Shown one piece after another: positions 49,200 through 53,279 of a stretch of 64,000 bases of DNA. Source of the DNA: Candidatus Pelearchaeum maunauluense (GTDB lineage Archaea > Thermoproteota > Nitrososphaeria_A > Caldarchaeales > Caldarchaeaceae); NCBI GenBank assembly GCA_030059675.1, contig JANVYQ010000001.1:224001-288000 (forward strand). Direction: 5' to 3'. The notes under the pieces are model-generated. The model was not told the origin of the DNA. It did not search any database and saw only the letters and a program-made list of their open reading frames with translations. The position numbers and the translations under genes were made by a program. How positions within the stretch are numbered: the first letter of the stretch is position 1; every line of letters starts with the position of its first letter.

Positions 49200-49988
49200 C
49201 TAAGCTAAAAGAGAAGGAGGCTGAGTAATGTCCTCAGTAGCCCTAACAACCCAAACACTCTCACGCCTAGCCCTCTCCACAAGCTCAGGCATAGCCAGAG
49301 AGCAGTAAACCAGCAACAGGCGCCTAGGTCTGAGATAAGCTGGATACCTCTCCTCTAGTATGTGGAGCTTGGAATAGAGCTCGTCAAGGACGCCTACGCC
49401 AGCCCTTACAGAGGTCTCACCCACAACACAGAGGTCGTCGGAAACCCCGTAAATATCCACCTCAAGGTCAGGAAGCTGAAGCCGCCCCAGCTCAACATTA
49501 ACACCCATCTCACGAAGCCTATGCCTCACAACAGACCTACCCTCATCCTCAATATCAAGAGTAAGCTTCTCAAGAGTTCTCTCAACCCTACCAAGCCTAA
49601 CATCCATACGGCTAAAATCAAGCCGCAACAGCCTCATCTCCTCCAAAATCTTAATTTGCTCACCACGCAAACTTCTCATCTCCTCCAAAATCTTAATTTG
49701 CTCACCACGCAAACTTCTCATCTCCTCCCATACCTTAGCCTGCTCTTCGCGAAGTCTCTCAATCTCCTTCCATATTTTGGTCTGCTCTTCTCTGAATTTC
49801 CTTATCTCCTCCCATGTTTTTTCAATTTCCTTCCATATTCTTCCCTGTTCTTTGCGTAGCTCTTTCTGCTCTTCTGCTATGCTGTCAAGTCTCTTTAGAA
49901 CATCGGCTATCCCTAGGTAGCCTAGGACTGTGTATCTGAATTCTTCGTCTTCCTTGAGTAGTTTTAGGAATTCTCCGCGTATCCCCAA
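49200..49988 (-). CDS. Archaeal coiled-coil repeat protein with C-terminal PD-(D/E)XK-like domain
   Basis: LLKEDEEFRY.V.G.LG N-terminus, heptad repeats, EVDIYG...VGETS. Confidence 0.8.
   Translation of the reverse strand: MGIRGEFLKLLKEDEEFRYTVLGYLGIADVLKRLDSIAEEQKELRKEQGRIWKEIEKTWEEIRKFREEQTKIWKEIERLREEQAKVWEEMRSLRGEQIKILEEMRSLRGEQIKILEEMRLLRLDFSRMDVRLGRVERTLEKLTLDIEDEGRSVVRHRLREMGVNVELGRLQLPDLEVDIYGVSDDLCVVGETSVRAGVGVLDELYSKLHILEERYPAYLRPRRLLLVYCSLAMPELVERARRESVWVVRATEDITQPPSLLA
49633..49728. repeat. Perfect 42-bp tandem repeat, ~2.3 copies, coding (EEMRSLRGEQIKIL)
   Basis: ctcatctcctccaaaatcttaatttgctcaccacgcaaactt at 49633 and 49675, partial copy at 49717. Confidence 0.92.
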
Positions 49989-50041: not shown

Positions 50042-50716
50042 TTATGGTTTAAATGGCCATTCCTCGTGCTTGTATGCGGCGTCCCAGAACAGGTATTCGT
50101 ATATTGTGGATGTTCTGAAGTGCCGCTTCATGGCTTTCTTCTCTTCTTCGCCAACCTTGGTGTATGTCTCCTCGGTTAGCCTTATGACGCGCTCAACTGC
50201 GCGTGCGTACTCTTTTGAGGAGTATGTGTCTATCCACCTCCTATACGCCTCGTTGGGTGAGCCATGTTCTAGGAGATGCTTACCAACCTCCCAGTAAACC
50301 CAGAAGCAGGGTAGTATCGCCGCAATCCCCTCGTGGAATGGTCTGGAATATGCTACTGCTGTAAGGTAGTTTGTGTATGCTGTGTCGGTCATGTTCATGG
50401 GTGTGTCGTATATCTTCTCTAGGTTCATGCCCCACTCTGATAGTAGGAACTCGTGGAGTGATGCGCGCTCTACTGTGAGAGCATCGAGGGCGCTTGTGAG
50501 GAGTATGGTGGCCGAGTCGTCGTCGGGAGCCTTAACCCCTACTAGAGCAACAGCCCGCGCAAACTGGCTCAGATACAACGCGTCTTGGATTACGTAGTCC
50601 TTGAAGGTTTCCATGGGTAGTGCGCCTGAGACGAGTCCCTGTATGAATGGATGCTCCAGTATGCCTTCATAAACATCGCTTATTAGCCTCCAAAGCTCCT
50701 CGCGTGGTTTGACCAT
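50042..50716 (-). CDS. tenA: Thiaminase II / TenA
   Basis: HPFIQGL, YVIQDALYL, ILPCFWVY, YRRWIDTY, YEYLFWD. Confidence 0.92.
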   Translation of the reverse strand: MVKPREELWRLISDVYEGILEHPFIQGLVSGALPMETFKDYVIQDALYLSQFARAVALVGVKAPDDDSATILLTSALDALTVERASLHEFLLSEWGMNLEKIYDTPMNMTDTAYTNYLTAVAYSRPFHEGIAAILPCFWVYWEVGKHLLEHGSPNEAYRRWIDTYSSKEYARAVERVIRLTEETYTKVGEEEKKAMKRHFRTSTIYEYLFWDAAYKHEEWPFKP

Positions 50717-50791
50717 GCTATAGTAGGTTGGAGTATCTCTAGATAAAACCTGCTGAGCGACGCGCAGACTGGAATATGTTGCTTGGCTGCT

Positions 50792-51109
50792 TTAGGGAGA
50801 TATTCTCCTGATGGCGAATGCCAGGTCCATCGGTATATCCTCGCTAAGCAGCCTGCTCAACTCAACAAGTATATCATGTACAAGAATGCGCGAGCCTGCG
50901 CCAAACAGATTCTCCAAAGCCTCTATGAACGCTTCAGGCTTCTTCACTATATCCTCCCGTTGTATCTGGTAGCTGTTCTCCAGGTGCCAGTAGATTATTC
51001 TCTTCGCATTCTCGCCTAGCCTGCCGAAGGCGCTGTCTACGGCGTTTAGCATCACAGCCTGCCCTGCTGAGGCTTCCATCATGTCCTCCCAATGATATCC
51101 CCGATTCAA
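50792..51109 (-). CDS. Small DUF3227/NitrOD5-like archaeal domain protein
   Basis: LGENAKRIIYWHLE...I..KPE.F..ALE.LFG.G pattern. Confidence 0.6.
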   Translation of the reverse strand: MNRGYHWEDMMEASAGQAVMLNAVDSAFGRLGENAKRIIYWHLENSYQIQREDIVKKPEAFIEALENLFGAGSRILVHDILVELSRLLSEDIPMDLAFAIRRISP

Positions 51110-51184
51110 GCCTATTCTAATTGATATTTCACAATAATATATATGTATAAGGCAGGTAAACCATATTAAAGATGGAAAACGGCG

Positions 51185-52228
51185 GTGAATGAGGTGAAGC
51201 TAGGCTCTACACCAACGGAAGAGGCGGTAGCTAGGGTAGTTGCGGCCGCCATGAAGTGGGGACCAACAAAGGTAGCTAGGATAGCTACCGAGTGCGGAAT
51301 CCCAACAGAGACTTGCCGCCACTACATTAAGACGCTCTTCAAGAAAGGCTACACTTTCACAGCCGTCGTTGACTATCATGCTCTTGGGCTACAGCAGTGT
51401 ATGGCGTTGCTGAGGCTAAGCCGCGAGTGGCGGCGTGGCTTGCGTGAGAATAATCTAGTCAGGTGGCTGGAGAGGATATATGCGGTATACCGCGCTGGCT
51501 TGGCTCAGGGTGGGGAGTATTTGTTCCACGTAGCGGTGCCGCAGGGTGAGGAGAGGGAGTATGTCAAGCTCCTTGAAGACCTTGTGGAGAAGGAGGTCAT
51601 AGAGCGGTATGAGTTCTACATGGTTAAGGACGGCTACTACGCGCCGCGCTGGATAAAGATGTACAGCCTCCTCCGCGACGCGTGGAGAAGCACGCCACTG
51701 GAGACCGAGATACAGAAAACCCCAATAACCTACAACAACGGAACAACAGACGTAGATAAGCTAGACCTCGCGATAATCCTCAGGCTGGAGATAGACCCAA
51801 GAAAACACAACCGCGAGATAGCCAAAGAAACAGGATACTCGGCGCAGCTCATAAGCTACCATAGACAGAAACATGTAGAAGGACAACGGCTCATAACGGG
51901 ATTTGTAGCAGAGCTAACTAGGGAGTCTCACGAGAGAAAGCTGCTGATTATAGCAACAAAGAGAGAAGAGCTCATAGACGAGGCTCTGTTGAATTATATG
52001 CATTTGAGGATTGAAACACCAGATAGTTATGTTATCTATCGTCTGCATCTTCCATTTCAACTACATACCAAGCTAACCCCAGATATTCAATCGCTCTTGT
52101 TGCATCATGATAAAATCATACGTTTCGGAATACCTCTGGAGCATTATAATGCTGATGGAGAGTGGACTAGCATTAGGCTATTCTTACAGAATGTTGATGA
52201 GGTTGTCGCTACAATTCGGCGAGAATAA
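51185..52228 (+). CDS. Large regulator with duplicated Lrp/AsnC-like HTH modules
   Basis: N-terminal HTH (KVARIATECGIPTETCRHYI..VDYHALGL) and a second HTH (VDKLDLAIILRLE.DPR..REIAKETGYS.QLISYH). Confidence 0.75.
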   Translation: MNEVKLGSTPTEEAVARVVAAAMKWGPTKVARIATECGIPTETCRHYIKTLFKKGYTFTAVVDYHALGLQQCMALLRLSREWRRGLRENNLVRWLERIYAVYRAGLAQGGEYLFHVAVPQGEEREYVKLLEDLVEKEVIERYEFYMVKDGYYAPRWIKMYSLLRDAWRSTPLETEIQKTPITYNNGTTDVDKLDLAIILRLEIDPRKHNREIAKETGYSAQLISYHRQKHVEGQRLITGFVAELTRESHERKLLIIATKREELIDEALLNYMHLRIETPDSYVIYRLHLPFQLHTKLTPDIQSLLLHHDKIIRFGIPLEHYNADGEWTSIRLFLQNVDEVVATIRRE

Positions 52229-52278
52229 CAAAAGAGGTAGAAGGTTGAGAAAATAGAGGAGGGTGGAGATAGCTTTAG

Positions 52279-52431
52279 CTAGCTTAAATCCCATCCTGGT
52301 AGTGGTGGTCCTGCGTTAGCTGATATTATGAGCTGTAGCGCTAGTAGGGCTGTTAGGGTTGCTAGGCCTAGGACTGTCCATTTTGACGGCTTTGTTGCGA
52401 AAAGGCTTCGTATCGCGAATATGCGTATCAT
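52279..52431 (-). CDS. Unannotated 50-aa precursor: signal peptide + 10-aa C-terminal peptide GPPLPGWDLS
   Basis: MIRIFAIRSLFATKPSKWTVLGLATLTALLALQLIISANA|GPPLPGWDLS*; upstream AAGGAG and TTTATATA (52502-52509); downstream pyrimidine-rich tract. Confidence 0.65.
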   Translation of the reverse strand: MIRIFAIRSLFATKPSKWTVLGLATLTALLALQLIISANAGPPLPGWDLS

Positions 52432-52586
52432 ACTCCTTATACACCGCTATTTTCTAGACTTAGGTTGGAGATAACTTTTTCGTTTTGATTTCTCATGATA
52501 GTATATAAAGCTTTAGCAGATTATAAACCATAAAACAAAACAACCAAAGTAAGGATGTTTGAAAAAGGAAAGAGAGTTTTCGGGGT

Positions 52587-53279
52587 TTAACGCCTCTTCC
52601 TCTGGTATTCGTAGGACTCTCCTGGGTTTAGGACTACCACTTTAACGCCCTTGGCTTTTCTCTTGACTAGGCGGGCAAACTCGTTGGGGTCTTGTTTTAT
52701 CGCGTCAAAGGTGTTGTAGTGCATGGGTATCGCTACTTTTGGTTTTATGAGCGCCGCTGCTACCGCTGCTTCTGTCGGGCTCATGGTGAATAGGCTTCCT
52801 ATCGGTAGTAGTGCTATGTCTGGCTTGTAGAGCTGTCCTATCAGCTTCATGTCGCCGAAGAGTCCTGTGTCGCCTGCGTGGTAAATTGTTGCTTCTTCGC
52901 CTCGTATGATTATGCCGCATGGGTTTCCTGAGTGGTGTGCTGGTGTGAGCGCCGCTCTTATCCCCTCAACATCAAAGAAGCCGCCTATGTTAGCGCCTAG
53001 GGTTTTCTCCACACCCGCGTCGCTGGCCTTGACGGTCAGCTCATACATGCCAACAACGGTGGCGCCCAGCCTCTTAGCAAGCTCAAAAGCATCACCCACA
53101 TGGTCAAAATGCTCGTGGGAGACGAAGACGATGTCAGCCCTGTCTATCTCCTCAGGCTTCACAGAGGCAACAGGGTTCTGCGACAGGAATGGGTCTATGA
53201 GAATCACCTTACCGTCCAGCTCAATACGCCACGCGGCATGACCGAGCCACTCAAGACGCGCCATACAAAACACCAGCAA
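52587..53279 (-). CDS. UPF0173 metallo-beta-lactamase-fold hydrolase
   Basis: WLGHAA, IDPF, SHEHFDH, YHAGDT, LLPIG, PMHYNTF. Confidence 0.92.
   Translation of the reverse strand: MLVFCMARLEWLGHAAWRIELDGKVILIDPFLSQNPVASVKPEEIDRADIVFVSHEHFDHVGDAFELAKRLGATVVGMYELTVKASDAGVEKTLGANIGGFFDVEGIRAALTPAHHSGNPCGIIIRGEEATIYHAGDTGLFGDMKLIGQLYKPDIALLPIGSLFTMSPTEAAVAAALIKPKVAIPMHYNTFDAIKQDPNEFARLVKRKAKGVKVVVLNPGESYEYQRKRR

Follow-up and report, generated by a model that had tools for sequence, protein, structure and literature searches.

What keeps the gene for a 50-residue hydrophobic protein tail to tail with the gene for a transcriptional regulator, and what might the product of the one do for the other? 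The question is raised by a 64,000-nt stretch of DNA (hereafter the window) from the 1.79-Mb genome (completeness 94%) of Candidatus Pelearchaeum maunauluense, order Caldarchaeales (formerly Aigarchaeota), in which a regulator gene at 51185-52228 faces a micro-protein gene at 52279-52431 on the opposite strand. Lrp-type regulators, the kind at issue here, are the most abundant archaeal transcription factors. An earlier note on the same DNA had suggested that the two genes could be a pheromone module, the small open reading frame (ORF) supplying a secreted pro-peptide and the regulator acting as its receptor. Our analysis finds a self-contained accessory module of Caldarchaeales, an order of hot-spring archaea, whose two genes strictly co-occur and always converge. 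The pair offers a compact test case, a single regulator with a near-unique DNA element and a 50-aa product, and no earlier description of a fused Lrp form locked to a micro-protein gene was found in the literature searched. A passage in one paper names a cultivated member of the order, Wolframiiraptor gerlachensis (PMC9246946). The argument turns on the following features of the window.

51185-52228, plus strand: fused tandem Lrp/AsnC-type regulator, 347 aa from the GTG at 51185 (ORF, Pfam, AlphaFold2 and Foldseek evidence)
52279-52431, minus strand: micro-protein gene, 50 aa, MIRIFAIRSLFATKPSKWTVLGLATLTALLALQLIISANAGPPLPGWDLS (ORF reading, orthologue alignment, dN/dS, database clusters)
52229-52278, no strand: spacer of 50 bp between the convergent stops
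52502-52509, minus strand: TTTATATA, the small gene's TATA box, 78 nt before the ATG, aligning with TTTA[AT]ATA of the orthologues
52467-52491, minus strand: conserved element AAATCAAAACGAAAAAGTTATCTCC between TATA box and ATG, 11-35 nt past the former and 36-60 nt before the latter
51110-51184, plus strand: promoter region of the regulator, holding the AT-rich stretch ATAATATATATGTATAA

Two genes that occur together

The small ORF is a genuine gene under purifying selection. A translated search that covered 60 relatives recovered it (E 1e-9 to 3e-4) in 11 of 17 further genomes of its family (f1; we label families f1, f2, f3 and f4 and genera g7, g10, g11 and g13), and these 11 are exactly the genomes with a full-length orthologue of the regulator. 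A search seeded with a nine-sequence f1 alignment led to 11 loci. By the Nei-Gojobori method, synonymous differences are large and often saturated (pS 0.5-0.9) against pN of 0.13-0.44, giving dN/dS of 0.05-0.5, and in close comparisons all three parts of the protein are constrained, with pN/pS of 0.17 in the N-terminal part, 0.24 in the helix and 0.37 in the tail. In the window these parts are a conserved N-terminal stretch of 20 aa (M1 I2, P15 S16 K17), a hydrophobic helix of ~20 aa bearing Q33 and, after A-N-A at residues 38-40 and the invariant A40-G41 junction, the 10-aa tail GPPLPGWDLS. The 12 micro-proteins of f1 measure 48-50 aa, and have M1, I2, P15, S16, L23, L30, L34, A40 and G41 invariant; for f1 the conserved N-terminal segment reads MIGIxNEVRTLxTIRPSKYT. 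The corresponding motif of the larger subfamily (86 sequences) is ALKxGLSKE; there G11, E15 and A26 do not vary, nor does the penultimate Pro, while K14, G34 and a Lys in the tail are nearly invariant.

The earlier note had read the locus accurately: the 50-aa ORF from 52431 to 52279, its A-N-A box and its tail are all where it placed them, and the stops stand exactly 50 bp apart (52229-52278). It had also allowed that the ORF might prove to be the truncated 5' end of a longer secreted protein. A profile search of 5.8 billion proteins returned 105 clusters, every one of them 30-80 aa long, so the small ORF is not the cut-off 5' end of a longer gene; the position of its stop is moreover common to all orthologues. 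These clusters are named 'hypothetical' or are nameless, and none has a Pfam domain. Look-alikes in the ESM Atlas reached a top score of 0.81, which is below the meaningful level, in clusters without names. A class III (pilin-type) signal and a double-glycine leader were considered at the N-terminus and rejected by eye, since the defining positions misfit.

The coupling to the regulator, seen by the note at one locus, is borne out across the order. All 33 distinct Caldarchaeales orthologues of the regulator that were examined have a hydrophobic ORF of 37-51 aa convergent on their 3' end (29 found by an automatic filter and four by inspection, one of the four with a 48-nt overlap with the regulator), and the arrangement ranges from a 48-bp overlap to stops 90 bp apart. 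The distribution was surveyed with a 24-regulator profile and a micro-protein profile, each run over 76 genomes (the whole class, four families), with micro-protein matches taken at E <= 1e-6, and presence and absence of the two genes agree throughout. The micro-protein is found in 36 genomes, and its 37 matches each lie within ~200 bp of a regulator 3' end on the opposite strand. Another 36 have neither gene, including two 99%-complete Ca. Caldarchaeum genomes and all seven genomes of g7; carriage stands at 11/17 among the other f1 genomes and 0/7 in g7. Four genomes have a regulator match without a micro-protein, and in each the 3' side of the regulator is cut by a contig end. Two genomes have two copies of the regulator; in one both are paired, and in the other one is paired while its counterpart is cut by a contig end.

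As controls, 61 genes from the same loci and 441 genes from three contigs of the window's genome were checked for any signal-peptide-like small ORF nearby; 4 and 55 of them, respectively, had one. Related genomes are non-independent samples, and the argument for pairing consequently leans on conservation at saturated synonymous divergence and on changing flanks. The small ORF stands far beyond chance, because dN/dS is well below 1 where synonymous divergence is saturated and because synteny holds in 33/33 loci. Flanking genes vary by genus, and no third gene is conserved with the pair. The window's genome has a single copy of each gene, and most carriers likewise have the module once. Among public sequencing runs, none of RNA is listed for the sequence, and three DNA runs of one study each contain 5-9% of the sequence words.

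The regulator and the promoter element

The regulator can be read from the GTG at 51185 (MNEVKLGS) or from an in-frame GTG at 51194 (MKLGS); the latter is probably the true start, giving 344 aa, because MKLGS lines up with MKLSS, with which 10 orthologues begin. Judged from its sequence and its structural model, the 347-aa protein is a fused tandem Lrp/AsnC regulator with two non-identical helix-turn-helix domains (HTHs) and two RAM domains. Pfam matches residues 191-226 with HTH_24 (PF13412; E 3.5e-8, 33.3 bits against a cut-off of 21.9) and with HTH_AsnC-type (PF13404; E 3.1e-6, 27.3 bits against 27). A second HTH_24 stretch is present, and the clear Pfam HTH signal is confined to residues 191-226, the first half being too diverged for the Pfam AsnC model. 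The AlphaFold2 model, made from a 24-row orthologue alignment (pLDDT 91, pTM 0.88), shows two successive HTH+RAM modules: three-helix bundles at 11-53 and 192-232, and beta-alpha-beta-beta-alpha-beta domains, assigned as RAM-like by their fold, at 56-146 and 237-313. The duplicated Lrp/AsnC-like HTH modules that the earlier note described are borne out by the model. Its view that any receptor here would not be of the RRNPP class fares equally well, as no TPR family occurs among the Pfam matches at E <= 1 and the fold is tandem HTH+RAM.

Each unit has the same three-helix HTH plus RAM domain as the Lrp/AsnC (FFRP) regulators, among them P. furiosus LrpA, Pyrococcus FL11/PH1519, S. tokodaii ST1022 and E. 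coli Lrp/AsnC. The module's regulator differs from these in being two units fused (335-380 aa), with non-identical HTH and RAM domains, in having a candidate DNA element that is asymmetric rather than palindromic, and in always being paired with a micro-protein gene. Against the Protein Data Bank (PDB), the only full-length Foldseek matches are to NirDL (4ch7, 4czc; E 4e-9, TM 0.47-0.54, 11-12% identity), followed by many single Lrp/AsnC regulators (TMt 0.46-0.63). Pfam reports no AsnC_trans_reg match and no AsnC_trans_reg2 (PF17805) match even at E <= 1. The protein is taken to be a regulator, not an enzyme, because AsnC_trans_reg2 is absent from it, because its sequence profile matches only Lrp-type regulators among PDB sequences, and because another open frame of the same genome, 150 aa long and located on contig C5, passes the AsnC_trans_reg2 cut-off. 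Orthologues share 35-40% identity in f1 and 93% within the same genus, and database names of relatives are 'DNA-binding Lrp family transcriptional regulator', 'hypothetical protein' or none. PADLOC gave only weak matches, to the winged-HTH part of Csa3/CasR/CARF models (E 1e-4 to 1e-6), and no defence-system signature.

The small gene also has its own TATA-like box, as the note had observed: TTTATATA at 52509-52502 on the minus strand, in register with the TATA boxes of the orthologues. A metallo-beta-lactamase-fold gene on the same strand ends 155 nt upstream of the micro-protein ATG, and since the TATA box and the conserved element both fall in this gap, the micro-protein gene has its own promoter and is not the distal member of an operon. 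The AAGGAG that the note listed beside the TATA-like box is indeed present (52438-52433, minus strand), but it lies 1 nt from the ATG and is a poor Shine-Dalgarno candidate, because that gap is shorter than the typical spacing.

Promoters of f1 follow the pattern TTTA[AT]ATA, then 12-13 nt, then AAATCAAAAC[GA]AAAAACTTTTCTTC (52467-52509, minus strand, in the window). The f1 element is near-invariant in 11/11 loci with upstream DNA, and its conservation exceeds that of the coding sequence, in which synonymous sites are saturated. As it begins 11 nt after the TATA box, the A-rich element spans the expected transcription start. The other subfamily keeps the same geometry with the core GCAAAAATGTTA[AT]ATAA, of which the central AAAAATGTTA is invariant in 16/16 loci. 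Moreover, the element is nearly unique: the f1 form occurs once in the window, and genome-wide, at up to 4 mismatches of 20, it has besides itself four matches, each at exactly 4 mismatches. The core of the other subfamily, sought at up to 1 mismatch in five genomes, matched the small-gene promoter in three and missed it in two, with one extra match in each of two genomes.

Repressors in archaea commonly act by binding on, or a little downstream of, the TATA box or transcription start. We read the element as a candidate operator, that is, a protein-binding site, for which the adjacent regulator would be the obvious candidate binder; an asymmetric site would be in keeping with a protein whose two HTHs differ. 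Lrp-type dimers are described in a passage of one source as binding (semi-)palindromic sites of ~13 bp (PMC2995911). No convincing operator common to the promoters of the regulator and the small gene was found; they have in common only the 7-mer TCAAAAC/GTTTTGA, in Ca. Caldarchaeum genomes alone, which we do not treat as significant. A structured leader or riboswitch upstream of the small gene was considered and dropped on the result of RNAalifold, which predicted 0 pairs for 11 leaders. Rfam gave 0 matches over 50700-53000 at E <= 1.

At the other end of the small gene, the minus strand has TTTT runs 26-29 and 46-49 nt past its stop, within the spacer. On the plus strand a terminator-like hairpin with a T-run lies at 52374-52389, inside the small ORF, and the regulator transcript probably continues antisense into that ORF because the strand has no T-run before 52381.

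Readings of the micro-protein

That the micro-protein is targeted to the membrane or the Sec pathway is supported by its predicted features: a hydrophobic core and a small-x-small site (A, V or G at -3; A or G at -1) occur in 24/24 aligned orthologues and likewise in the database set. The earlier note took this for a signal peptide preceding a short pro-peptide, and the hydrophobic core and small-x-small site do fit that description, but other features are atypical of cleaved signals. The n-region of 17-20 aa is conserved and, in the larger subfamily, net neutral or negative. The hydrophobic stretch and c-region together span ~23 aa and enclose a conserved Gln (f1, g10) or Glu (g11), and cleaved signal peptides disfavour charge in their h-region. 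The 8-11-aa tail is constrained, nearly constant over the 86 sequences of the larger subfamily, and does not diversify. Given the conserved N-terminus, the length of the h- and c-regions, the Gln or Glu in the core and an n-region that is not positive in the larger subfamily, the micro-protein looks more like a working membrane helix than a signal peptide to be discarded. Cleavage seems to us possible, with the balance tilting against it.

The reading we favour, to which we give about an even chance, is that a dedicated tandem-Lrp regulator controls a membrane-inserted micro-protein effector in a ligand-dependent manner. The regulator would be a cytoplasmic single-chain Lrp/AsnC 'dimer' with two different HTHs and two ligand-sensing RAM domains, and would bind the asymmetric element at the transcription start of the small gene, switching that one gene; a small ligand sensed by the RAM domains would set its state. 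The output would be the micro-protein, an uncleaved bitopic signal-anchor of 45-50 aa whose conserved 8-11-aa tail would lie on one face of the membrane, and which may act within the membrane through its Gln- or Glu-bearing helix, on itself or on another membrane protein. Overlapping 3' ends could add antisense or collision coupling between the genes. Bacterial small membrane proteins under a dedicated regulator include MgrB, AcrZ and MgtS. The micro-protein resembles these in having a single helix, fewer than 50 aa in some orthologues' case and in theirs, conserved helix and flanks, and transcription probably set by a sensor regulator; it differs in having no sequence relationship to them, in being archaeal, and in having a gene that is physically locked to the regulator gene, convergent with it and often overlapping it. 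Even if no peptide feeds back on the regulator, the module would remain a conserved archaeal membrane micro-protein with a putative switch, and few such are understood.

Several observations weigh against the effector reading. All subfamilies have a small-x-small motif just before the tail (f1: ANA|G, VHA|G; f4: GIG|E, VPA|E, GIG|K; f3: VMA|D, GIA|G), as would fit signal-peptidase cleavage to a free peptide. The charges of the flanks lead to opposite topology predictions, the N-flank being net positive in f1 and the C-tail more positive in the other subfamily. A convergent orientation of regulator and target is unusual. Finally, small ORFs at more distant loci carry predicted signal peptides of the classical cleavable type.

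Those loci came from matching the regulator profile to 401 sampled Thermoproteota genomes, 132 of which match at E <= 1e-8 and often encode several paralogues each. From these, 52 distinct non-orthologous homologues were taken as the best-scoring matches, not as a random sample. Nine of the 52 (loci L103/L120, L105, L108, L110, L122, L125 and L100/L117) adjoin a small ORF with a hydrophobic N-terminus and an end rich in G, P and D. Two of the nine are convergent 44-aa ORFs ending GPINSPAPL. The other seven are co-directional upstream ORFs of 42-75 aa, mostly with a short basic n-region, ending GDPVDDVKPH, GDEVDDVRPH, GDPIDDPLIAS, DTVPGGGIPK, GDEGGTAKPG, GDPRDGDWPQ and GIPIADPDPS. A G+P+D content of 50% or more over the final 12 residues occurs in 6 of 23 small ORFs flanking distant homologues and in 1 of 64 background ORFs of the window's genome, the single one being the 50-aa micro-protein itself; the motif was defined after inspection of the data. 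A G-[DER]-P-[IVL]-D-like core is common to distant and f1 tails. In the orthologous pair of 75-aa ORFs at L103/L120, the predicted signal peptide, a YGC (lipobox-like) site and the last 12 residues are all conserved, while the middle varies. As a lead from sequence, these loci are the best support for the exported C-terminus as the functional part.

They bear chiefly on the idea that the pair signals by peptide, the micro-protein being a pre-pro-peptide cut after the small-x-small site to release 8-11 aa that would be re-imported, bound by the RAM domains and fed back on its own promoter. A passage in one source describes RRNPP pairs as a small ORF with an export signal and an adjacent cytoplasmic regulator (PMC10075063). 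Like the RRNPP systems of Bacillota and their phages (Rap-Phr, PlcR-PapR, AimR-AimP), the module is a two-gene unit in which an ORF of ~40-60 aa, with an N-terminal export signal (putative here) and a short C-terminal part, lies beside a cytoplasmic regulator; unlike them, it has a putative receptor of Lrp/RAM and not TPR fold, convergent genes, an archaeal host, a micro-protein with a conserved N-terminus and polar helix residue, and a tail that is not diversified. Signalling would account for the small-x-small site and short tail in all 24 aligned orthologues and the database set, and for the near-unique element, since an autoinduction loop would be expected to have a dedicated regulator. 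The 9/52 distant loci, with their enrichment (6/23 against 1/64) and common tail core, point the same way, as does the conserved-ends, variable-middle pattern of L103/L120, which is Phr-like; in the two closest genome pairs, moreover, amino-acid changes gather in the tail. On the other hand, constraint is strongest in the N-terminal 17-20 aa, which are near-invariant in 86 sequences, unlike a generic n-region, and the length, polar residue and charge described above fit poorly with a cleaved signal. The tail is under purifying selection without pherotype-like diversification, the flanks inspected hold no conserved peptide importer, and the distant association is patchy and its motif post hoc. 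Lrp/RAM domains bind amino acids, and we know of no peptide-binding case. Of the proposed pheromone module, then, a real, coupled gene and membrane or Sec targeting stand, but its tail is conserved and its receptor is not of a known peptide-binding class; we consider such signalling unlikely. The same low standing goes to its general form, an archaeal peptide autoinducer with a new receptor class, in which an 8-11-residue peptide of G-x-P-hydrophobic-D type would be sensed by RAM domains, with related systems of longer pro-region across Thermoproteota. The peptides so released, which we doubt, would be GPPLPGWDLS in the window and GRPIDSSH, EKIGKVPL and similar ones in relatives. Were peptide feedback true, it would be the first archaeal peptide-based cell-cell signalling, with a new class of receptor.

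Strict one-to-one co-occurrence, duplicated copies included, would also suit a membrane tether or anti-regulator, in which the N-terminal segment of the micro-protein holds the regulator at the membrane and its activity reports the state of the envelope, with a logic like that of anti-sigma factors or SdpI-SdpR. The most constrained part of the micro-protein is indeed the short flank predicted to be cytoplasmic in f1, and the module has no further component. Contact between the two proteins, however, finds no positive support (a co-fold scored 0.01 against a mark of 0.32, which is no verdict, the partner's own fold being uncertain); if the micro-protein gene is the regulator's sole target, sequestration would have no other output; and a convergent, non-operonic layout gives no stoichiometric coupling. 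We hold a tether to be distinctly unlikely. A module resembling type I toxins, with a membrane-damaging micro-protein whose mRNA is checked by the antisense 3' end of the regulator transcript, would draw on the small hydrophobic single-helix protein, on 3' ends that abut or overlap by up to 48 nt, on a plus strand with no T-run before the small ORF and on the accessory distribution. Type I toxins are typically multi-copy and poorly conserved, whereas this gene is single-copy in the window's genome and most carriers and is conserved across the order, with a conserved tail motif predicted to be extracytoplasmic; its 5' leader has no conserved structure, and its partner is always a protein-coding regulator and not a small RNA, all of which makes a toxin very improbable. 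Most improbable of all is a siroheme-decarboxylase-like enzyme of fused AhbA/B or NirDL type with a functionally unrelated small ORF. NirDL (4ch7/4czc) is the top full-length structural match, and NirDL and AhbA-AhbB comprise two Lrp-like HTH+RAM units, in one chain or as a heterodimer, in the manner of the module's regulator. Yet the likeness amounts to TM ~0.5 (0.47-0.54) at 11-12% identity, AsnC_trans_reg2 is wanting here and present in the separate 150-aa frame, the PDB profile is Lrp-only, the distribution is accessory (11/17 in f1, 0/7 in g7), and strict pairing with the micro-protein would be left unexplained.

Neighbouring genes and paralogues

Two further features of the window adjoin the pair.

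50792-51109, minus strand: 105-aa ORF, divergent from the regulator at a distance of 75 bp, with a sub-threshold NitrOD5 match
52587-53279, minus strand: metallo-beta-lactamase-fold gene, 230 aa, Lactamase_B_3 at E 4e-24

For NitrOD5 ('Nitrosopumilus output domain 5', cut-off 27 bits) the 105-aa ORF reaches 25.0 bits; the relative of the same genus has it too, but in other genera it does not adjoin the regulator. With TenA, these two genes are among the flanks in the window. Flanks elsewhere include ABC ATPase with nitroreductase, NuoM-like gene with V4R protein, Lhr with ParA-like gene, and radical-SAM gene with a membrane protein of 226 aa, besides a THUMP-SPOUT gene and a phosphoribosyltransferase.

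In a metagenome-assembled genome of Ca. Caldarchaeum (locus L052, 880-6010), the pair and a 463-aa protein with a C-terminal V4R domain are flanked by a NuoM/N-like gene and by a NuoL-like membrane-subunit gene on the opposite strand. The V4R gene is divergent from the micro-protein gene, and the promoter element falls in their common intergenic region. The V4R protein was considered as a core part of the module and rejected, as this 463-aa neighbour was not found in the window's genome. A radical-SAM gene of ~350 aa (CxxxCxxC; Pfam Radical_SAM at E 1e-6, just below the cut-off) is divergent from the regulator in four loci of a set comprising L041, L043, L044, L047, L048 and L050 (genus g11 and one g13 genome), and a membrane protein of 178-233 aa follows the micro-protein gene in five of the same six. 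These genes may be a lineage-specific extension of the module or, for the enzyme, a peptide-modifying activity; as a core component, on the idea of a ribosomally synthesised and post-translationally modified peptide, the radical-SAM neighbour was rejected, being limited to g11 and one g13 locus among the loci inspected.

Paralogues of the regulator in family f2 (L014-L023 and L026-L029; tandem-Lrp proteins of 375-415 aa) are without a micro-protein partner. After the f2 paralogue, in at least six loci, comes a same-strand gene for a membrane protein that begins ...GLPxDFWILxxSLxIxNMFxLGFSPF.. and looks MFS-like by eye. Elsewhere in the window, at 49200-49988 on the minus strand, a coiled-coil ORF of 262 aa carries two identical tandem copies of the 14-aa unit EEMRSLRGEQIKIL, followed by a diverged third.

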